DNA of 64,000 nucleotides from an uncultured Gammaproteobacteria bacterium (lineage in GTDB: Bacteria; Pseudomonadota; Gammaproteobacteria; UBA9214), in NCBI GenBank assembly GCA_963748215.1, contig CAVVHS010000006.1:988355-1052354 (forward strand). Reading direction: 5' to 3'. Under the pieces are notes generated by a model that had not been told where the DNA came from, did not search any database, and worked only from the letters and a program-made list of their open reading frames with translations. Every line of letters starts with the position of its first letter. The stretch's first letter is position 1. A program made the translations under genes and the position numbers. Below are positions 21,407 to 36,172 of the stretch, in pieces.

Positions 21407-22964
21407 TCAGGGCCGTATCGCCTGCAGCAGCGCCACCCCGGTTTCGGCGGGCGGCAGCTTGCTCACGGACAGGTGCAGCAACAGGTTGTCGACGCTGGCA
21501 TGCATCACCTCGACCAGCGGCGCCGGCCACAGGCCGAACAGCAGCACGACCACCGCCAGGCTGCCTAGAATGAAAGTCTCGCGGCCATTGATGTCCTGTA
21601 GCTGGCGGACATCGTCATTGGCGACATCGCCGAACACCACGCGCTTGACCATCCACAGGGTGTAGGCGGCACCGAGGATCAGCGTCGTGGCGGCCAGGAA
21701 GCGCGAACCAGAAGTTCGCCTTGAAGCTGGCCAGGATCACCATGAACTCGCCGACGAAACCGGAGGTGCCGGGCAGGCCCGCGTTGGCCATGGCGAACAG
21801 CACCATGAAGGCGGCGAACACCGGCATGGTATTGACCACGCCGCCGTAGTCGCTGATCTCGCGGCTGTGCACGCGGTCATACAGCACGCCGACACACAGG
21901 AACAGCGCGCCGGAGATGAAGCCGTGCGAAATCATCTGCACCATGCCGCCTTCCATGCCGAGCGCGGCGCCCTCGACGGAGCCGGTGTTGTCCAGCAGTG
22001 TGAACACGAGGAAGATGCCGAGGGTCACGAACCCCATGTGCGCGATCGACGAGTAGGCAATCAGCTTCTTCATGTCGCTCTGCACCAGCGCGACGAAGCC
22101 GATGTAGACCACCGCGACCAGCGACATGAGGATGATCAGCCAGTCGAGCTCGTGGCTGGCATCCGGCGTGATCGGCAGGCTGAAGCGCAGGAATCCGTAG
22201 CCACCGATCTTCAGCATGATCGCGGCCAGGATCACCGAGCCGCCGGTCGGCGCCTCGACGTGCGCGTCCGGCAGCCAGGTGTGCACCGGCCACATCGGCA
22301 CCTTCACGGCAAACGCCATCAGGAAGGCCAGGAAGATCAGCATCTGCTCGGTCATGCCCAGCGGCAGCAGGTGGAAATCGAGGATGCTGAAGCTGCCGGA
22401 CTGCAGGTACATGTAGATCAGCGCGACCAGCATGAACACCGAACCGAGGAAGGTGTAGAGGAAGAACTTGATGGTGGCGTAGACGCGCCGCGGCCCGCCC
22501 CAGACGCCGATGATGAGGAACATCGGGATCAGCATCGCCTCCCAGAACACGTAGAACAGCATCGCATCCAGCGCCGCGAACACGCCGATCATCAGGCCTT
22601 CCATGATCAGGAAGGCGGCCATGTACTGCGCGGTCTTGTCCTTGATCACCTCCCAGCCGGCCAGCACCACCAGCACCGTCGTGAACGTGGTCAGGATGAT
22701 CAGCGGCATGGAGATACCGTCGACGCCGAGGTGATAGTTGACATTGAAGGCGGCGATCCAGGGGATGATTTCCTGGAACTGCATCGCGGCCGTGCTGGTT
22801 TCGAAGCCGATATAGAGCGGAACGCTGAGGATGAAGGTCAGCACGGACACGACCAGGGCCATCTCGCGACAGGCCTTGTTGCCCAGCGCGTCCATCACCA
22901 GCAAGGCGGCGCCTCCGGCGATCGGCAACCAGATCAGCAGACTCAGTAGCGGGTAATCGATCAT
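21407..22964 (-). CDS. nuoM: NADH-quinone oxidoreductase subunit M (apparent insertion near 21701)
   Basis: [42 protein letters not shown]; C-terminus in shifted frame. Confidence 0.95.
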
Positions 22965-24947
22965 GCCGCTGCCCCCGTTGTGCGGAACACGAACCAGAAC
23001 AGCATCAGCAGCAGGCCGATGATCATGCTGAAGGCATAGGTGTAGAGATGCCCGGTCTGGATACGGCGCACGACGCCGGCAGTCCAGCCCACCACGCGCG
23101 CACTGCCGTTGACGATCAGCCCGTCGATCAGCACCACGTCACCGACACGCCACAGCAACTGGCCGAGACCGCGGGCGCCGCCGGCGAACACGACCTCGTT
23201 GAAATCGTCCGCGTAGTACTTGTTGACCAGCAACTGGTAGATACCCTTGAAACGCTGCCGGACATCGTCAGCCAGCTGCGGGTTCTTCATGTAGATGTAC
23301 CAGGCCACGGCGACGCCGGCGATGGCCAGGTAGATGGCCGGGCCGCCGAAGGCGTGCAGCACGAAGCTGGCCGGGCCGTGATAATGCTCCGCCATCGCGG
23401 CCAGCACGTCGTGGTTCGCGGCGACATGAATCACGCCGTTGAACCAGTCGCCGAATACCACCGGGTCGATCAGGTAGCCGGCCAGCACCGACGGAATCGC
23501 CAGCATGATCAGCGGCACGGTCACCACCCAGGGCGTTTCGTGCAGGTGTTCGCGGGTATGGTCATCCATGCGCGGCTCGCCGTGGAACACCAGGAAGTAC
23601 AGGCGGAAGCTGTACAGCGCGGTGACGAATACGCCGGCCAGCACGGCCACGTACACGCACGCCCGCATACTGGCAGGTGCGAGTGATGCACGGCCTCGAT
23701 AATGGTGTCCTTGGAGAAGAAGCCGGAGAAGAATGGCGTGCCGATCAGCGCCAGCGAGCCGACCAGGAACGTGATCCAGGTGATCGGCATGTACTTGCGC
23801 AGCCCGCCCATCTTGCGGATGTCCTGCTCGTGGTGCATGGCGATGATCACCGAGCCGGCGGCGAGGAACAGCAGCGCCTTGAAGAAGGCATGCGTCATCA
23901 GGTGGAAGATACCGGCCGCATAGGCCGAGACGCCCAGCGCCACGGTCATGTAACCGAGCTGCGACAGCGTCGAATAGGCCACCACGCGCTTGATGTCGTT
24001 CTGCACGATGCCGAGGAAACCCATGAACAGCGCGGTGATGGCGCCGATCACCAGCACGAAGACCAGCGCCGTCTCGGACAGCTCGAACAGCGGCGACATG
24101 CGCGCCACCATGAAGATGCCGGCGGTCACCATGGTGGCCGCGTGGATCAGCGCCGAGATCGGGGTCGGGCCTTCCATGGAATCCGGCAGCCAGACATGCA
24201 GCGGCACCTGCGCGGACTTGCCCATGGCGCCGATGAACAGCAGGATGCAGATCACCGTCATCAGCGACCAGTCGACGCCGGGGATGACCTGGTACATGGT
24301 GCCCTGCTCCGCGGGCGCGGCGGCGAACACCGTCGGCGTAGTCGAGGCTGTCGAAGGTCGCATCAGATAGCCGCGATGCCGAGCAGGAAACCGAAGTCGC
24401 CGACCCGGTTGACCAGGAAGGCCTTCAGGTTGGCGTAGATCGCGCGTCGGCCGCGTGTACCAGAAACCGATCAGCAGGTAGGACACCAGGCCGACCGCCT
24501 CCCAGCCGAAGAACAGCTGCAGGAAGTTGTTGGACATCACCAGCATCAGCATGGAGAAGGTAAACAGCGCGATGTAGCTGAAGAAGCGCTGGTAACCCGG
24601 GTCGTCCTGCATGTAGCCGATGGTGTAGATATGCACCATCAGCGAGACGAAGGTGACCACGGTCATCATCAGCGCCGTCAGCTGGTCGATCAGGAAGCCG
24701 ATCTCGAAACGCACACCCTCCGTCACCATCCAGGTGTAGACCGTGCCGTTGCAGGGCTCGGCGCCGCCGAAGGCGAACTGCCTGAGCACCACCAGCGACA
24801 GCACGAAGGACGTCGCCACGCCGAGAATGGTGACCGTAGTGCGCCCCGGCACGGCCGATCGAGCGGCCGAACAGGCCGGCGAATGATGGCACCCAGCAGC
24901 GGCGCCAGCGGGATGGCAAGGTAGATCATTTTGCTGACACCGTTCAT
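22961..24947 (-). CDS. nuoL: NADH-quinone oxidoreductase subunit L (several apparent indels)
   Basis: GKSAQVPLHVWLPDSMEGPTPISALIHAATMVTAG, THAFFKALLFL; split over several frames. Confidence 0.93.
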
Positions 24948-26572: not shown

Positions 26573-27717
26573 TCAGTCGAACCACGGGGCGATGTTCAGC
26601 ACCACCGCGGCGCCTTCCACCACCATCCAGACGATGGTGATCGGAATGAACACCTTCCAGCCCAGGCGCATGATCTGGTCGTAGCGGTAGCGCGGAAAGG
26701 TGGCGCGGAACCACAGGAAGAACAGCAGGAACAGCGAGGTCTTCGCGCAACAGCCAGTAGAATGCCCGGCAGCCCAGGCCGGATACCGGTCGTCCAGACC
26801 GTCGGCATGACCCTGGAACGGCGACAGCCAGCCGCCGAGGAACATCAGTGCGGTCAGCGCCGCGATCAGGATCATGTTGGCGTACTCGGCGAGGAAGAAC
26901 ACCGCGAAGGCCATGCCGGAATACTCGACGTGGAAACCGGCGACGATTTCCGACTCGCCCTCGGCGACGTCGAACGGCGCGCGGTTGGTCTCCGCCACGC
27001 CGGAGATGAAGTACACCAGGAACAGCGGCAGCAGCGGCAACCAGAACCAGTGCAGCACGCTGCCCTGCTGCGCCTGCACGATTTCACCCAGGTTCAGGCT
27101 GCCGCCGGCCATCAGCACGCCGACCAGCGCGAAGCCCATGGCGATTTCGTAGGACGACGATCTGCGCCGCCGAGCGCATGGCGCCGAGGAAGGCGTATTT
27201 CGAGTTCGACGCCCAGCCGGCGATGATGACGCCGTAGACGCCGACCGAGGTCAGCGCCAGGATATACAGCAGGCCGGCATCGATGTTGGCCAGCACCAGC
27301 GTCATCGGTGAACGGCATCACCGCCCAGGCGGCCAGCGCCGGCGCGATGGACAGCATCGGCGCGACGATGAACAGGAAACGGTTGGCGTTGGTCGGGACG
27401 ATGATTTCCTTGATCAGCAGCTTGAGGGCGTCGGCAATCGGCTGCAGCCAGCCGCGCGGTCCGACCCGGTTCGGCCCGATGCGCACCTGCATGTAGCCGA
27501 TGATCTTGCGCTCGGCGAAGGTCAGGTAGGCCACGCCCAGCATCAGCGGCACCAGGATCAGCACGATTTTCACCAGCGAATACAGTACCGCACTGCCCTT
27601 GATGAAATCCCAGTAATGCACACCGAGCATGACGGCGGCCGCACCCGCAACTGCCAGCACCAGCAGCGTGACGACCCAGTGTCCCGTGTAGGATTTTTTC
27701 AGTGTGGTCTCGTTCAT
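26573..27717 (-). CDS. nuoH: NADH-quinone oxidoreductase subunit H with N-terminal hydrophobic extension (apparent frameshifts)
   Basis: [63 protein letters not shown]. Confidence 0.93.
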
Positions 27718-27727
27718 GGCCGCGTGC

Positions 27728-30127
27728 TCACACCCGTTCGATAGTGACCGGCCCGAAGGCCGCACCCAGCGAGGCCGCGGCCACGGTACCGGCCTGGATC
27801 CAGAGGCAACCGTCGGCCACGCGCTCATCGATGCAGACATCCATCACCTTGCTGGCGTCACCCTGCGTGACGGTCACGGTGAAGCCATCGCGCACACCGG
27901 CAAGTTCCGCCTGGCGTGAGTTGAGGTGTACCAGGGCGGCCGATCCGGCATCCGGCGTCATCTGCAATGCCGCGGCACGCCGCACCAGTGCATCGGCCGA
28001 GTTGATCGCCACGTCGCCGATACGCTCCAGGCCGTCGCCGGTCTGCCCGGTCGCGACCGGGCCCGGCGGCTGCGTATTGTCCAGGTTGAGGGTGCCGGCC
28101 TGTCCCAGCAGCGTATCGCGGACCTCCTCGCTGCTGTTCTGCCCGAAGCCATCCAGCCCGAACTGGTTACCGAGCACGCGCAGCACCTTCCAGCCGGGGC
28201 GACTGTCGCCCACCGGGCTGGCCACGCCGCTGAAACTCTGCCAGCGGCCCTCGGCATTGATGAAGGTGCCGGAGGTCTCGGTGAAGGGACCGATCGGCAG
28301 CAGTACGTCGGCAACTTCCTGCATGGCCTCGCTGGCCCACGGGCTGATGGAGACCACGAAACCAGCCGCATTCATGGCCTCTAAGGCCTGCGCCGGATCG
28401 TTGCAGTCATGCGCCGGCTCGACGTTGAACAGCAGGTAGGCCTGGCGCGGATTCGCCAGCATCGACTGCGCATCGAGGCCCGGCGTCTTGACGCGGCTGC
28501 CGGCGGGTCCGCGGTGCGGCAGCGCGCCGGCCAGCCAGGCGCCGGTGCTGTTGGCAGCCTCCGGCAGGATGCCCAGCACGGCATCGCTGTGTTGCGCGAT
28601 CACGCCGGCCAGCGCCTTGAGCAATGCATACTGCGGGTGTGCGCCGGCGACCGCGCCCAGCAGCACGGTGGCATGGGCGGCACCGCGCAGCGCGGCGGCC
28701 ATGGCGCGCTGCGTGTCGTCCGGGCTGGCGGCGGTGATGGCGGCCCTGACGTCTGCGGCAGCATCCCGGCCGGCATCCGGATAGCAGGCCGCGATCCCGG
28801 CCAGCGTGGCGACCAGTCGCGACGGCGCTGTTATGGCCTTCGCATGCACGGGGAACAGGAATTCGTAATCGACCGGGTTGACGAACATGACCTCTGCGCC
28901 ATTCAGCGCGGCCTTGCGCAGGCGGTGACCGGCCAGCGGCAGGTCCTTGCGGATATTCGAGCCGATCACCAGCGCGGCCGACACGCTTTCCAGTCCGGCC
29001 AGCGACTGTCCCAGCGTCGGGCACAGCGGCGCCTGCTCCTGGTCGCAGAAGTCCGCCTGGCGCAGGCGGTGATCGATATTGTTGACGCCGATGCCGCGCG
29101 CGACGGCCTGCAGCAGTGACAGTTCCTCCAGCGTTGCGGTCGCTGAGGCCAGCACGCCGACCTGCTCCGCGCCGCTGCTGTTGATCACGCCGCGCACGCC
29201 GTCGACGACGGCCTGCAGTGCGCTTTCCCAGTCGGTGCGCTGCCAGTTGCCGTCGACCCTGATCATCGGCTCGCTCACGCGGTCCGCGCTGTACAGGCCC
29301 TCGTAGCTGAAGCGGTCGCGGTCGGACAGCCACACCTCGTTGACCGCCTCGTTTTCGCGCGGCACCACGCGCATCACCTGGCCACGCCGGGTGTGCACGA
29401 AAATATTCGAGCCGATGGCATCGTGCGGTGCGATGGTGGCGTGCTGCTGCAATTCCCAGGCGCGCGCCTTGAAGCGGAACGGGCGCGAGGTGAGCGCACC
29501 GACCGGGCAGACATCGATCACGTTGCCGGACAGCTCGGACTCCAGCGAGGTCTCGATATAGGTGCCGATTTCCATGTTCTCGCCGCGCCCGGTCGCGCCG
29601 AGTTCCATCTTGCCGGCCACCTCGCGCAGCATGCGGATACAGCGCGTGCAGTGGATGCAGCGCGTCATGTCGGTGGCGATCAGCGGGCCGATATACTTGT
29701 CCTGGACCACGCGCTTCTTTTCGGCGAAGCGCGAGATATCACGGCCGTAGCCCAGCGCCAGGTCCTGCAATTCGCATTCGCCGCCCTGGTCGCAGATCGG
29801 ACAGTCCAGCGGGTGATTGATGAGCAGGAATTCCATCACCGCCTTCTGCGCGCCGGTCGCGATGTCCGAGCGGGTGAAGACCTTCATGCCCTCGGTAACC
29901 GGGGTGGCGCAGGCCGGCAGCGGTTTCGGCACCTTCTCGACCTCGACCATGCACATGCGGCAGTTGGCCGCGATCGACAGCTTCTTGTGATAGCAGAAAC
30001 GCGGTATCGGGATGCCGGCGGCGTCGGCCACCTCGATGATCATGGCGCCCTTGCGTGCCTTGAACGGCTTGCCATCGATCTCGATACTGACGAGATCCTC
30101 TGCCGGGATTTCGGCTTGCGCGCTCAT
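27728..30127 (-). CDS. nuoG: NADH-quinone oxidoreductase subunit G
   Basis: [39 protein letters not shown]. Confidence 0.97.
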
Positions 30128-31426
30128 GCCGCCTCCCCTGCCGGTGCCCTGGCGCCCGCCAGGCAGCGCTTGTGGGTGATGTGGTATTCGAATTCGTCGC
30201 GGAAGTGGCGCAGAAAACCCTGCACCGGCCAGGCGGCCGCCTCACCGAAGGCACAGATCGTCTTGCCGGCGATCTGGTCGGCCGCGCTCAGCAGCAGGTC
30301 CAGATCCTCGGGACGGCCCTGGCCTTCCTCGATGCGCTTGATGATGCGGTGCATCCAGCCCGTGCCCTCGCGGCACGGCGTGCACTGCCCGCAGGACTCC
30401 GCATAGTAGAAGCGCGAAATGCGCATCGCGGCCTTCACCATGCAGGTGGTTTCGTCCATGACGATGACCGCGCCGGAACCCAGCGCGGAACCCGCCTTGG
30501 CCAGCGCAGTCGTAGTCCATGTCGCATTCCATGATGATGTCGGCGGGCAGCACCGGCATGGAGGAACCGCCCGGGATGACGGCCTTGAGCCGGTGACCGT
30601 CACGCACACCGCCGGCCATCTCGAGCAGCTCGCGGAATGGCGATGCCCATCGGAACCTCGAAATTGCCCGGCTTGTTGACGTGGCCGGACACGGAGAAGA
30701 TCTTCACGCCGCCGTTGTTCGGCTTGCCGAGGTTCATGAACCACTCGCCGCCGTTGCGCATGATCGCCGGCACCGAGGCCAGCGTCTCGGTATTGTTGAT
30801 GGTGGTCGGCTTGCCGTACAGGCCGAAGTTGGCCGGGAACGGCGGCTTGAAACGCGGCTGGCCCTTCTTGCCCTCCAGCGACTCCAGCAGCGCGGTCTCC
30901 TCGCCGCAGATATAGGCGCCCGCACCGAGGTGACTGTAGCAATCGAAATCCACGCCCGAACCGAGAATATCACGGCCCAGCAGGCCGGCTTCGTAGGCCT
31001 CCGGCGAGTGCCTGCTCGAAGCGCTCGAAGGGTTCGTGGTGGAATTCGCCGCGCATGTAGTTGTAGCCGACCGTCGCGCCCATGGCGTAGCCGGCGATGG
31101 CCATGCCCTCGACCAGCGCATGCGGATTGAAGCGCAGGATATCGCGGTCCTTGCAGGTGCCCGGCTCGGACTCGTCCGAGTTGCACACCACGTATTTCTG
31201 CACCGGGGCGTTGCGCGGCATGAAGCTCCACTTCAGGCCGGTCGGGAAACCCGCGCCGCCACGGCCGCGCAGGCCGGAGGCCTTGACCGTCTCGATGACC
31301 TCTTCCGGCGGGGATCTTTTCAGCCAGGATCTTCTTCCAGGCCTGGTAGCCGCCGACCTTGAGATAATTCTCCAGCGTCCATGGCTGGTCGAATTGCAGG
31401 GTGTCAAAACAGACCTGTACGCTCAT
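30124..31426 (-). CDS. nuoF: NADH-quinone oxidoreductase subunit F (several apparent indels)
   Basis: [52 protein letters not shown]. Confidence 0.94.
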
Positions 31427-31429
31427 CTG

Positions 31430-31933
31430 CTACTCCAGTCCGTCCAGGATGGCGTCGACCTTTTCCGGTGTCAGCCGTTCGTGGTAATGACCGTTCACCG
31501 TCATCATCGGGCCGCCGGAGCAGGCCGCCAGGCATTCCTCTTCCAGCTTCAGCGTGATGCGCCCGTCCGGCGTGGTCTCGCCCAGCCCGATACCGAGCTT
31601 TTTCTCGACGTGCTCGACCAGGCTTTCCGCCCCGCACAGCATGCAGGAGATATTGGTGCAGAGTGCCACCATGTTGCGGCCGACCGGCTCCAGCTCGATC
31701 ATCGAATAGAAGGTACCGACCTCGTAGACCTGCACCGGCAGCAAGCCGAGGTAGTCGGCCACGGCGTCCATCAGGTCGCGCGTGACCCAGCCGCCATTCT
31801 GTTCCTGGGCGGCCTGCAACGCGCACAGCACGGCAGACTGTCGCTGCTCCGCCGGATACTTCTCCAGCCATGCGTCGATCGTCGCACGTGTCTCGCTGTT
31901 CAGCAGGTCGGATTTGCGGGCCGGTGTCGTCAT
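31430..31933 (-). CDS. nuoE: NADH-quinone oxidoreductase subunit E
   Basis: MTTPARK start; CTNISC and ECLAAC 2Fe-2S ligands. The ORF track fuses it with out-of-frame nuoD. Confidence 0.94.
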
Positions 31934-33191
31934 CAGCGGTCGATCTCCCCGAACACGATATCCTGCGTGCCGATGACGGCGACCACGTCGGCCAGCATGT
32001 GGCCGCGCGTCATTTCGTCCATGGCCGACAGGTGCGCGAAACCCGGCGCGCGCACCTTCAAGCGGTAGGGCTTGTTGGCGCCGTCGGACACCAGGTACAC
32101 ACCGAACTCGCCCTTGGGGTGCTCGACAGCGGCATAGGCCTCGCCTGCCGGCACGCAGAAGCCCTCGGTGAACAGTTTGAAATGGTGAATCAGGGCTTCC
32201 ATGTCGGCCTTCATTTCCTCGCGGCGCGGCGGCGCGAGCTTGTGCGTCATCCAGCATGACCGGGCCGGGATTTTTGCGCAGCCAGTCGATGCACTGCCTG
32301 ATGATGCGGTTGGACTGGCGCATCTCCTCGATGCGCACCAGGTAGCGATCATAGCAGTCGCCGGTCACGCCGACCGGGATATCGAAGTCGCATGCGGTCA
32401 TAGACTTCGTAGGGCTGCTTCTTGCGCAGGTCCCATTCGATGCCGGAACCGCGCAGCATCGGGCCGGTGAAACCGAGCTGCAGGGCGCGCTCCGGGACTG
32501 ACCACGCCGATGCCGACCGTGCGCTGTTTCCAGATGCGGTTGTCGGTGAGCAGGGTTTCGTATTCGTCCACGCAGCCCGGAAAGCGCTTCGTGAAGGCCT
32601 CGATGAAATCCAGCAGCGAGCCCTGGCGGTCGGTCGTTCTTTCTGTCGACCTCGCGCTGGCTGTGCCACTTGGATGCCTGGTACTGCGGCATCATGTCCG
32701 GCAGGTCGCGGTAGACACCACCCGGGCGGTAATAGGTCGCGTGCATGCGCGTGCCGGATACCGCCTCGTAGCAGTCCATCAGGTCCTCGCGCTCGCGGAA
32801 GGCATACAGGAACACCGTCATGGCGCCGATATCCAGGCCGTGCGCGCCCAGCCACAGCAGGTGATTCAGGATGCGGGTGATTTCGTCGAACATCACGCGG
32901 ATGTACTGCGCCCGCAACGGCGGCTGCGACGCCGAGCAGCTTTTCCATCGCCAGCACGTAGCCGTGCTCGTTGCACATCATGGACACGTAGTCGAGCCGG
33001 TCCATGTAGCCGATGCTCTGGTTGAACGGCTTGCTCTCGGCCAGTTTCTCGGTGCCGCGGTGCAGCAGCCCGATGTGCGGATCGGCGCGCTCGATCACCT
33101 CGCCGTCCATTTCCAGCACCAGCCGCAGCACGCCGTGCGCGGCGGGATGCTGCGGGCCGAAGTTCAGGGTGTAGTTGCGGATCTCCGGCAT
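31933..33191 (-). CDS. nuoD: NADH-quinone oxidoreductase subunit D (several apparent indels)
   Basis: [43 protein letters not shown]. Confidence 0.94.
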
Positions 33192-33194
33192 ACG

Positions 33195-33953
33195 CTACTC
33201 CGTCGCCCCGGCTTCCGCCGCCGATTCCGGTTCGTCGGCGACCTGCATGAGATCGACCGACTCGACGCTTTCGGCACGGATCACCTTCGGCACCAGGACA
33301 CGCGGCTCGATGCTCACCGGCTGGTAGACCACGCGCTTCTTCTCGGCGTCGTAGATGACCTCGACGTTGCCGGACAGCGGGAAATCCTTGCGGAACGGGT
33401 GACCGATGAAACCGTAGTCCGTCAGCAGCCGGCGCAGGTCCGGGTGACCCTCGAACAGGATGCCGTACAGGTCGAAGGCCTCGCGCTCGTACCAGTTGGC
33501 GCTGTTCCAGATGTCGATAACCGAGGGTACCACCGGCAGGTCATCGCTCGGTGCGAACACCTTGAGGCGCAGGCGCCGGTTATTGCGCAGCGACAGCAGG
33601 TGGTAAACCGCGGCGAAACGGCGTGCAGTGCCCGGCTTCTCCAGCACCAGGTCCTCGGTGACGGCAGTCAGCCGGCCCGCGGTCCCCGGCTCGACGCCAC
33701 GGCTGAAGCCGGACGCCGTAGTCTCTTCGGTAGCCCACTCGTCGCGTCCGTAGTTGAGATAGTCGACACCGCACAGGTCGATCAGTGTCTCGAAGGCAAA
33801 GGCCGGTTCGTCGCGCAACGCCGTCGCGACCTCGTGCAGGGCGTCACCGGCCAGCTCCAGGGTCACCTCACCGACGGCATCGATCACGGCGTCCAGCCGG
33901 TCACCGAAGCGGTCCTGTAACTGCTCTGCGAGCTGTCGGGAGAGATCTGACAC
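33195..33953 (-). CDS. nuoC: NADH-quinone oxidoreductase subunit C
   Basis: [47 protein letters not shown]. Confidence 0.96.
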
Positions 33954-33972
33954 GCAATGCTTCCTTCAGCCC

Positions 33973-34449
33973 CTAGCGGGCGATGGTGTTGGTTCGCTTT
34001 ATCTTGTTTTGCAGCTGTATGATTCCATACAGCAGCGCCTCGGCGGTGGGCGGACAGCCCGGCACGTAGATGTCGACCGGCACGATGCGGTCGCAGCCGC
34101 GTACCACGGAATAGGAATAGTGGTAGTACCCGCCGCCGTTGGCACAGGAACCCATCGAGATCACCCAGCGCGGCTCGGCCATCTGGTCGTAGACCTTGCG
34201 CAGCGCCGGTGCCATCTTGTTACACAGCGTGCCGGCCACGATCATCACGTCGGACTGGCGCGGGCTGCCGCGGAACACGATGCCGAAACGATCCAGGTCA
34301 TAGCGCGAGGCACCCGCCTGCATCATTTCCACCGCACAGCAGGCCAGGCCGAAGGTCATCGGCCACATCGAGCCGGTGCGCGCCCAGTTGATCAGGCTGT
34401 CGGCCGTGGTGGTGACGAAACCTTCCTTGAGCAGGCCCTCGACGCTCAC
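33973..34449 (-). CDS. nuoB: NADH-quinone oxidoreductase subunit B
   Basis: [33 protein letters not shown]. Start assigned to GTG 34449 ([10 protein letters not shown], 158 aa) rather than GTG 34524 inside the repeat. Confidence 0.95.
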
Positions 34450-34477
34450 GTCAATGCTCTCGCGTCTGGACAGCAGG

Positions 34478-34998
34478 CCGGGATTCGGCACGCCAGCGTC
34501 GCTCGCGGACGTGCGCATCCCCACTGCGTGGGGCCCCTGCCTACTGCTCGCGCCCGCGCCTCAGGCATTGAGTCGATATCGGATAATTCCGGGATTCGGC
34601 ACGCCAGCGTCGCTCGCGGACGTGCGCATCCCCACTGCGTGGGGCCCCTGCCTACTGCTCGCGCCCGCGCCTCAGGCATTGAGTCGATATCGGATAATTC
34701 CGGGATTCGGCACGCCAGCGTCGCTCGCGGACGTGCGCATCCCCACTGCGTGGGGCCCCTGCTTACTGCTCGCGCCCGCGCCTCAGGCATTGAGTCGATA
34801 TCGGATAATTCCGGGATTCGGCACGCCAGCGTCGCTCGCGGACGTGCGCATCCCCACTGCGTGGGGCCCCTGCTTACTGCTCGCGCCCGCGCCTCAGGCA
34901 TTGAGTCGATATCGGATAATTCCGGGATTCGGCACGCCAGCGTCGCTCGCGGACGTGCGCATCCCCACTGCGTGGGGCCCCTGCTTACTGCTCGCGCC
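34478..34998. repeat. Tandem array, 111-bp unit x 4.7, between nuoA and nuoB
   Basis: Units start at 34478, 34589, 34700, 34811, 34922; identical except one C/T site (cctgcctact in units 1-2, cctgcttact in units 3-5). Confidence 0.97.
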
Positions 34999-34999
34999 G

Positions 35000-35356
35000 C
35001 TACTCCCATTCCAGCGCACCTTTTTTCCATTCGTAGATGAAACCGATCACCAGGATTGCCAGGAACACCAGCATGGCCAGGAAACCGAACATACCAATGG
35101 AGTCCAGCACCACTGCCCAGGGAAACAGAAAGGCGATTTCGAGATCGAACAGGATAAACAGGATGGCGACCAGGTAGTAGCGCACGTCAAAGCGCATGCG
35201 CGTGTCCTCGAAGGCCTCAAAGCCGCATTCGAAGGGCGAATTTTTCTCGCTGTCGGGCTTGTTCGGAGCCAGCAGAAAACCCAGTACGACCGGACCCACG
35301 CCCACGCCGATGCCGATGGCGATGAAGATCAGGATCGGAAGGTAGTTTTCCAGCAT
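35000..35356 (-). CDS. nuoA: NADH-quinone oxidoreductase subunit A
   Basis: [38 protein letters not shown]. Confidence 0.97.
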
Positions 35357-35440
35357 CGTTCCCCTCGTGTCCGGCCAGGACCATTTTGCGCAGGCATCCA
35401 CCTGGTATTGTAGTGTCGGATGCGGCTAAAAAGATTGTGC

Positions 35441-35469
35441 AGTCTAGGCCAGCGTGCCACCACTGTCAA
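35441..35469 (-). promoter_or_regulatory. Putative sigma70 promoter of the nuo operon
   Basis: Minus strand TTGACA-17 nt-TAGACT. Confidence 0.7.
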
Positions 35470-35592
35470 GTTGGGATATGCCTGTTTTTTTCTTATATTT
35501 CAACAGATTAATTGGGTTATCGGGGTATAGAAAATCAGCATGCAGGCCACCTTGCCGCGCACGAAAAAATGGCCAGCACCTGCTGTTTGATT

Positions 35593-35677
35593 TGGTACCG
35601 ATGGCCGGACTCGAACCGGCACGGCTTGCGCCACTACCCCCTCAAGATAGCGTGTCTACCAATTCCACCACATCGGC
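35593..35677 (-). tRNA. tRNA-Leu (GAG)
   Basis: GCCGATGTGGTGGAATTGGTAGACACGCTATCTTGAGGGGGTAGTGGCGCAAGCCGTGCCGGTTCGAGTCCGGCCATCGGTACCA; long variable arm; leuU-like position after secG. Confidence 0.96.
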
Positions 35678-35710
35678 GTGGGTATGTTGTACAGGAAATG
35701 CAGCAGCGGA

Positions 35711-36172
35711 TTATTGAGGCAAGTCGTCCGCCACCGGGCCGCCCGGCTCCAGGGTGGCCGGCGCACCCGGCACGTCGCCGGCTGGCTGCGTCAGTGGCTC
35801 GGTAACCAAAGCTGGCAGATCGTCCGCCGCCGGCTGCGCCTGTTCCAGCTTGTCGGCGATTGCGGCCGTTTCCGCGGATTCCCGGGTCTGCTGCACCTGC
35901 TCCTCGATCTTGTCCGCGATGCCGAGGCTGGCCGAGCCGCTGTGGCGCACCAGCGGAGAGGCAATCAGCAGGCAGTTGAGAAAAAATACCGCCGCCAGGA
36001 TGCCCGTGGCGCGGGTCAGGAAAGAACCCGACCCGCGCGATCCGAACACGGTACCGGAGGCGCCGGCGCCGAATCCGGCGCCCATATCGGCACCCTTGCC
36101 CTGCTGCAGCATGACCAGCGTGATAATGCCGACCGAAACCAGGATCTGTATTGCCAGTAGTATGGAAAACAT
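35711..36172 (-). CDS. secG: Preprotein translocase subunit SecG
   Basis: LQQGKGADMGAGFGAGASGTVFGS.GS..FLTR.T. Confidence 0.95.
   Translation of the reverse strand: MFSILLAIQILVSVGIITLVMLQQGKGADMGAGFGAGASGTVFGSRGSGSFLTRATGILAAVFFLNCLLIASPLVRHSGSASLGIADKIEEQVQQTRESAETAAIADKLEQAQPAADDLPALVTEPLTQPAGDVPGAPATLEPGGPVADDLPQ

Follow-up and report, generated by a model that had tools for sequence, protein, structure and literature searches.

In an uncultured gammaproteobacterium (lineage UBA9214; GenBank assembly GCA_963748215.1), the complex I genes nuoA and nuoB are separated by 550 nucleotides (nt) that consist of 1 base, a tandem array of 111-nt units and a 28-nt tail. The stretch of DNA analyzed, referred to here as the window, is 64,000 nt long (contig CAVVHS010000006.1, positions 988,355 to 1,052,354). 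One reading frame remains open throughout the insert: it begins at an ATG within the last codons of nuoA, is made up of 37-codon repeats, and ends in a stop codon that overlaps the start of nuoB. Comparison with related genomes suggests that this ATG is the relic of a nuoB start that once lay inside the end of nuoA, and that the inserts found at this site have been kept translatable. This evolutionary reading is well supported by the comparisons described below; that ribosomes are relayed across the insert, and thereby feed nuoB, is plausible by analogy with repeats described in mycobacteria.

The nuoA/nuoB junction and its relic start

All of the features concerned lie on the minus strand. 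The nuoA gene (35000..35356; 118 codons followed by TAG at 35002-35000) matches the Pfam family Oxidored_q4 (E 1.8e-41), is 84-97% identical to its orthologues in relatives (tblastn), and ends in ...CTG GAA TGG GAG TAG. The nuoB gene (33973..34449; 158 codons; Pfam Oxidored_q6, E 1.2e-28) starts with a GTG (34449-34447) at the position where the NuoB of relatives starts, and is 92-99% identical to theirs from residue 1. Between the two genes, Tandem Repeats Finder delimits an array with a GC content of 68% (34478..34998; period 111, 4.7 copies, 99% matches, no indels), comprising four full units (34998-34888, 34887-34777, 34776-34666 and 34665-34555) and a partial unit of 77 nt (34554-34478). 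The non-repeat tail (34450..34477) is common to two relatives, L004 and L009. As a scan of the array for promoter-like and terminator-like sites found none inside it, nuoB-N must be transcribed through the array.

The bridge open reading frame (ORF) extends over 34446..35009, with 187 codons and a TGA. Its ATG (35007..35009) is formed from the Glu-Trp codons of nuoA, and its sole stop (34448-34446) shares bases with the nuoB start as GTGA (34449-34446). This anatomy had been put forward in a preliminary description made from the letters of the window, and its coordinates were all reproduced. Seven nt before the ATG, inside the Lys-Lys-Gly codons of nuoA, lies a Shine-Dalgarno-like AAGGTG (35017..35022) that is a candidate ribosome-binding site.

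The case for a relic start comes from the family to which the window genome belongs. In 54 family genomes searched, nuoB could be located in 51 and the junction read in 49, of which 45 contain both genes; the other four (L004, L007, L014, L015) are truncated by a contig edge that falls within the element or shortly before it. A search at the level of the order stayed within the same family, f1, to which all 45 of the genomes searched belong. In 28 of the 49 readable junctions (28 of the 34 beyond the first 15 relatives), nuoB starts inside the last codons of nuoA, with the sequence ATG/GTG GGA ATA GAR GGN, read as MGIEG, and a 10-nt overlap, ATGGGARTAG. Because nuoB starts at precisely that codon in these 28 junctions, the bridge ATG is the relic of the ancestral overlapped start, a possibility that the preliminary description had raised from the MGV with which the bridge begins and that the 28 further junctions substantiate. 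The nuoA codons K-K-G-A-L-E-W-E precede the real nuoB start in all 28 overlap-type relatives, and as the old ribosome-binding site and start are made of these conserved codons, they would have been hard to lose. The point of insertion in the window is directly after ATGGGARTAG. Since nuoA and nuoB both keep their ends, the ten bases of the overlap must either have been duplicated or have given way to the insert.

How such a junction might continue to function can be described as a succession of steps. An insert would land in the ancestral 10-nt overlap, with nuoA keeping its stop and nuoB acquiring a new downstream start, while the old ribosome-binding site and start would persist within the constrained nuoA codons. 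Ribosomes would start or restart at the relic ATG, read through the stop-free insert, and terminate at the TGA overlapping the new nuoB GTG, where termination-reinitiation coupling would continue to feed nuoB; the bridge peptide would be a by-product. Because the unit is 3 x 37 nt, both junctions stay in register however many units are gained or lost. The bridge frame has a GC content by codon position of 0.66/0.70/0.64, without the periodicity seen in nuoB (0.57/0.48/0.86), and its product of 187 residues has no Pfam match. A relay of this kind, in which the relic start is used and nuoB depends on the ribosomes so delivered, is considered rather probable. Less can be said for the further supposition of the preliminary description that translation of the bridge masks the RNA from Rho. 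This idea is weakened by the composition of the array RNA, which is G-rich (C/G 0.83) and structured and thus a poor Rho loading site. Copy number could, as that description also supposed, tune the output of nuoB-N.

The open frame in related junctions

Within the window, just one 37-codon unit is effectively tested because the copies are near-identical. Across the family, 17 loci have an insert and contain both genes, and in every one of them the relic frame stays free of stops until -27..+8 nt from the nuoB start; it is likewise open over the available sequence in all four of the contig-edge loci. The inserts of the 17 loci range from 28 to 550 nt; 11 have the conserved hairpin core described below and the remaining six are other inserts, of 28, 28, 34, 40, 100 and 279 nt. 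An open frame together with a 111-nt period is common to six arrays (that of the window and L004, L005, L006, L007 and L008), and a stop in the relic frame is found in no orthologous array of the family. The frame ends at +1, as ATGA or GTGA, in 10 of the 17 loci, with one further locus showing TAGTG and one TAA-ATG. Four short inserts that are unrelated in sequence (28-40 nt; L018, L021, L023, L038) all end in ATGA/GTGA. Both the persistence of the open frame, also in arrays with the 3n unit, and the GTGA-type overlap, which the preliminary description had proposed to look for in relatives, are present there. The two kinds of junction also differ in the second codon of nuoB: 12 of the 17 loci with an insert have AGY there, and all 28 overlap-type genomes have GGA. 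The codons of nuoA force GGA in the latter; in the 10 loci ending at +1, it is the AGY codon that supplies the overlapping TGA.

Compared with shuffled controls, the excess of open frames is modest. In a conservative test, shuffling was confined to the variable tail of each lineage, with the shared core and the final 27 nt left out of account. All 15 representative tails have the relic frame open, as against 10 and 6 for the other two frames, and the product of the chance probabilities is 3.9e-4. With dinucleotide shuffles of whole inserts, direct bridges in single-unit family inserts number 12 of 12 versus 8.0 expected (P 0.0015). A wider set of 51 dereplicated nuoA/nuoB inserts contains 50 with an unbroken ORF or a relay versus 40.4 expected from dinucleotide shuffles (P 2.7e-5), and for its single-unit cases the relay is present in 38 of 38 versus 32.5 expected (P 0.0018). 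By hand count, insert length modulo 3 equals 1 in 11 of the 15 lineages. Array periods at the nuoA/nuoB junction are multiples of three (111 or 114), barring one composite case of 133.

A different explanation is that the array is a neutral repeat, whether selfish, mobile or slippage-prone, with a frame that is open owing to GC-richness, a unit that is 3n by chance and shared descent, and with nuoB using its own ribosome-binding site. Several observations favor this explanation and weigh against the relay. In GC-rich DNA an open frame comes easily: about 80% of inserts (40.4 of 51) still relay after shuffling, and three of the six frames are open across the array, two of them on the plus strand, which bears out the caution about chance openness voiced in the preliminary description. 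The P values overstate the case because relatives share ancestry. Further complicating the argument, the relay fails in one of the 51 junctions (L139, outside the family), and many junctions outside the family need two steps, a 5-codon relic ORF and then an ORF from the element's own GTG or ATG. At loci other than nuo, a through-ORF whose stop meets the start of another ORF (60 codons or more) is seen in 45 of 75 sense cases versus 31 of 76 antisense cases, a difference that is not discriminating in GC-rich DNA, and the array periods at such loci are 3n in just 9 of 17. Moreover, the bridge is without a coding signature, and nuoB has a weak Shine-Dalgarno-like GAGAG of its own (34461-34457), 7 nt before the GTG, so that it could be translated independently. 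The neutral explanation does not, however, account well for the preference for the relic frame over the other two in the variable tails, for the surplus of relays in the wider set, for the ATGA/GTGA ends shared by the four unrelated short inserts, or for the AGY second codon (giving TGA in 10 loci) of insert-bearing junctions where overlap-type genomes have GGA. On balance it is judged unlikely, if still deserving of real weight.

The sequence of the array is backed by short-read contigs from two DNA studies, which exactly match the ends of the array and one unit period; those of run X1 show 0 differences from the end of nuoA to unit 1 (34969-35150), across the unit period (34860-34983), and from the last partial unit to nuoB (34433-34507), and one run behind the exact DNA contigs may be the source sample. 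The whole array is spanned by no contig, and the copy number of 4.7 comes from the assembly alone. Unit-like contigs are also found in two metatranscriptome libraries. One of them, 201 nt long and with 10 differences, connects nuoB with the last unit, and an RNA-library contig from a relative of ~90% identity joins nuoA to nuoB in the overlapped form (joint 34434/35000). Because RNA libraries can contain DNA, the unit-like contigs are just a weak hint of transcription; they show the presence of unit-like sequence and are no proof of translation. A further reservation about the relay concerns the state of the operon. Compared with the intact 417-codon nuoD of the relative G028 (95.3% identity over 1351 nt), nuoD in the window (about 31900-33191, minus strand) has five 1-nt insertions, and nuoF (about 30124-31426), nuoH (26573-27840) and nuoL (22961-24852) also look split in the ORF map. 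These frameshifts reflect either assembly indel errors or a decaying complex I operon; if the operon is decaying, tolerance of the insert in the window genome means less. The wider gene order on the minus strand is tpiA-secG-tRNA-nuoA-nuoB-nuoC..., with the tRNA gene (35596-35677, minus strand; Rfam RF00005, 48.7 bits) between secG and nuoA; the names tpiA and secG, and the order tpiA-secG-tRNA-nuoA, were read off ORF translations alone.

A dispersed family of hairpin repeats

The repeat amplified in tandem here belongs to a dispersed family of GC-rich hairpin repeats. Its hairpin core, GCAGGGGCCCC-7 nt-GGGGATGCG, was located by pattern match on the minus strand at 34514..34540 in the last partial unit and at 34625-34651, 34736-34762, 34847-34873 and 34958-34984 in the others. 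The full 111-nt unit is found in the window's own genome (G000) at the nuoA/nuoB locus alone; the core, taken as GCAGGGGCCCC-(5-11 nt)-GGGGATGCG, is dispersed beyond nuoA/nuoB. A scan of one genome per species gave at least 121 core loci, nearly all in betaproteobacterial metagenome-assembled genomes; among the 121 listed, seven lie at nuoA/nuoB, and there are up to four loci per genome. The exact core motif occurs in 8 of 401 genomes that sample the class evenly, and a backwards control in none. At many of the core loci the unit is repeated in tandem, with a period of 100-115 nt, and at other loci the core is also present as inverted pairs. The pattern used to scan metagenomes had a GAGC-to-AGCAGGGG spacing one base above the 4 nt of the window type, so that it retrieved the sister type described below and no window-type arrays. 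In a plasmid collection, one Ralstonia chromid match has the same geometry by eye; it comes with no gene annotation and is not used as evidence.

The window's own genome contains 13 copies of the core motif. It also contains eight non-coding elements of about 500 nt, all outside the window (C4:62496, C4:95654, C6:112388, C6:221640, C6:568746, C6:660919, C8:281519 and C9:20110), which are 83-93% identical in pieces, have terminal inverted repeats of roughly 21 nt, and each carry an inverted pair of cores. In these respects they look like miniature inverted-repeat transposable elements (MITEs) or REPINs. As for a link to RAYT transposases, five matches to PF01797 (Y1 transposase) were found in G000, none of them beside any of the 13 motif copies.

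The hairpin of the core is supported by covariation. Among 133 aligned elements, the stem pair 34/49 is GC in 90, AU in 36 and GU in 4, with 132 of 133 paired and 38 changed on both sides; the pair 40/48 is CG in 91, UA in 12 and AU in 11. In one subfamily, of 19 elements, the 8 nt that end at the unit's own start codon form an outer helix with a downstream stretch; 121 of 152 cells are paired, versus 43-68 for slid controls. Such covariation, with conservation at the nucleotide level, is what would be expected if the hairpins were mRNA processing, stabilizing or protein-binding sites that set the ratio of nuoA to nuoB-N, the ORF being incidental, and loci containing the Beta-proteobacterial repeat element (BRE) in Bordetella are reported in the available text of PMC3110155 to yield a stable 80-nt RNA. 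A role of this kind may coexist with the relay. As a whole, though, the array folds no more stably than its shuffles (z -0.6), and an Rfam scan of 33900-35900 with E up to 1 found the upstream tRNA and two chance-level matches over the tRNA stretch, leaving the array unmatched. This explanation, which also leaves unexplained the frame and the ATGA end of the unrelated short inserts, is therefore regarded as improbable.

Far less probable still is a NuoB start upstream in the last unit, at GTG 34524-34522 or ATG 34518-34516 (ORF 33973..34524, minus strand), which would give an N-terminal extension of 23-25 residues. The nuoB frame is indeed open back to 34524, and the extension is open in L009 and L011 as well; however, both codons lie in the 3' arm of the last hairpin without a spaced Shine-Dalgarno sequence, most relatives have stops before nuoB in that frame, and homology to NuoB begins at GTG 34449. 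That the bridge encodes a functional 37-residue repeat protein is scarcely credible despite its long open frame, start codon and Shine-Dalgarno-like site, for it has no family match and a flat GC content over codon positions, covarying hairpin positions are non-synonymous in its frame, with substitutions between relatives that keep pairing and change residues (T/A/M, W/R), and sister lineages have another frame of the element open.

Copy number at the junction varies among relatives, from one partial unit (L009, a 106-nt insert) through two to three cores (L005, L006, L008) to the 4.7 copies of the window. In L009, the closest single-copy relative, the insert corresponds exactly to the window's last partial unit and tail, which would be the expected remnant had the first and last copies of an array recombined unequally. 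A tree of nuoA from 45 family genomes calls for at least nine changes in the presence of the core. It repeatedly pairs genomes that bear the core with overlap-type sisters, at strongly supported nodes, so that the site is often gained, lost or exchanged.

More distant lineages, whose NuoA is 67-88% identical, have inserts of a sister type at this nuoA site, in two forms. In one, the relic frame runs straight through, though the frame of the element that it uses is not that of the window. In the other, a 5-codon relic ORF ends in a TGA overlapping the element's own GTG or ATG, and a second ORF then crosses one to three units to end -6..+10 nt from the nuoB start. At some loci other than nuo (e.g. 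L062, L064, L087, L094, L110), an ORF that begins at the ATG of the unit stops 73 nt beyond the core, where its stop codon forms an ATGA with the first codon of a long gene.

Individual junctions show additional variation. The hairpin loop of the core in L017 (genome G004) has an extra insertion of ~57 nt, with one extra base near the 5' end; its relic frame is still open and ends in a TAA directly before the nuoB ATG. On the metagenome contig L192, which has a 366-nt insert, a second, unrelated palindrome lies within the loop of the second core. A chain of ORFs covers this junction with two restarts after the relic ORF, and by reading, a further ORF of 10 codons lies just before nuoB. On another metagenome contig, L203, the hairpin has lost 1 nt, which brings the element's GTG into the nuoB frame with no stop between them; an N-terminally extended NuoB would result.

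Known repeats and the meaning of the junction

The arrangement at the junction is reminiscent of mycobacterial interspersed repetitive units (MIRUs). In the available text of a 2025 review (PMC12548453), MIRUs appear to insert at start codons and to contain an internal ORF coupled to the gene at -4 nt, for which the review cites Supply et al. 1997. As presented there, MIRUs such as that of senX3-regX3 are tandem units of tens to about 100 nt that are intergenic within an operon, inserted at the downstream start codon, and furnished with a co-oriented ORF having a 4-nt stop/start overlap. The corresponding features here are a 111-nt unit present 4.7 times, insertion right after ATGGGARTAG, and GTGA in the window with ATGA/GTGA in 10 of the 17 family loci; in both systems copy number varies between relatives. 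As to dispersal, the full unit here stands at one locus in G000, while the core family is dispersed in other genomes. The differences are also substantial. The hosts belong to another phylum, and the comparison is one of arrangement. The frame here is launched from a relic start in the last codons of the upstream gene because the target is a 10-nt gene overlap, and the GC-rich, covarying hairpin of the unit is also found inside MITE-like elements, there as inverted pairs. By this comparison, MIRUs would be an analogue of the window array and not a class to which it belongs. The same review text describes termination-reinitiation coupling at overlapping stop and start codons such as ATGA (PMC12548453). 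The GTGA/ATGA at nuoB is similar, with the short ORF perhaps just delivering ribosomes; the delivering ORF in the window, however, has up to 187 repeat codons and is neither a neighboring gene nor a minimal leader.

As material, the closest known repeat is probably BRE, to which the family may belong, a comparison made by description. According to the available text of Hot et al. 2011 (PMC3110155), BRE is about 90 bp long (75-91 bp) and GC-rich (about 69%), and lies between genes in Betaproteobacteria, Bordetella among them. Copies often stand in tandem, up to 8 in a row, their number differs from strain to strain, and they are transcribed; some overlap the ends of ORFs by a few bases, and in that text its authors propose no function or ORF relay. 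The window array is likewise GC-rich (68%), tandem and variable, and matches to its core are mainly betaproteobacterial. It differs in having a 111-nt unit, as against 75-91 bp, and in its host, an uncultured gammaproteobacterium.

Elements of the repetitive extragenic palindromic (REP) and REPIN type are short GC-rich imperfect palindromes mobilized by RAYT transposases. The covarying palindromic hairpin, the inverted core doublets at other loci and the eight ~500-nt elements of G000 recall them, whereas the copies in the window are direct and tandem, and G000 has just 13 motif copies, none of them beside a Y1-transposase match. In a limited literature collection, a search found the core motif string in no bacterial context, no relevant nuoA/nuoB intergenic repeat and no MIRU-like intergenic account, and the only proteobacterial repeat element returned was that of Hot et al.

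The arrangement is MIRU-like and occurs in Proteobacteria; what sets it apart is the launch from a start frozen in the upstream gene and the use of a dispersed hairpin repeat as the material. A broader proposal, offered tentatively, is that hairpin-core repeats (possibly BRE) may be a proteobacterial counterpart of MIRUs: mobile elements that would home to operon stop/start junctions, duplicate the junction, and carry or preserve a stop-free relay, either as a single bridge or as a chain of ATGA/GTGA-coupled ORFs, thereby spreading and multiplying in essential operons such as that of complex I without polar damage. If so, the nuoA/nuoB overlap would be a recurrent target, given the minimum of nine changes in one family and the sister versions at the same site elsewhere.

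At a practical level, such arrays break short-read assemblies at nuoA/nuoB (the loci of 4 of 15 relatives lie at a contig edge), and gene callers will report spurious repeat proteins from them. If the relay is real, a repeat can enter a tightly coupled essential operon and grow to half a kilobase with the downstream genes still coupled, a principle known only from mycobacterial MIRUs would extend to Proteobacteria, and the unexplained BRE repeat would gain a testable rationale. The relic start, frozen in place by the codons of the upstream gene, is a clear example from nature of how a constraint can oblige an insert to remain translatable.

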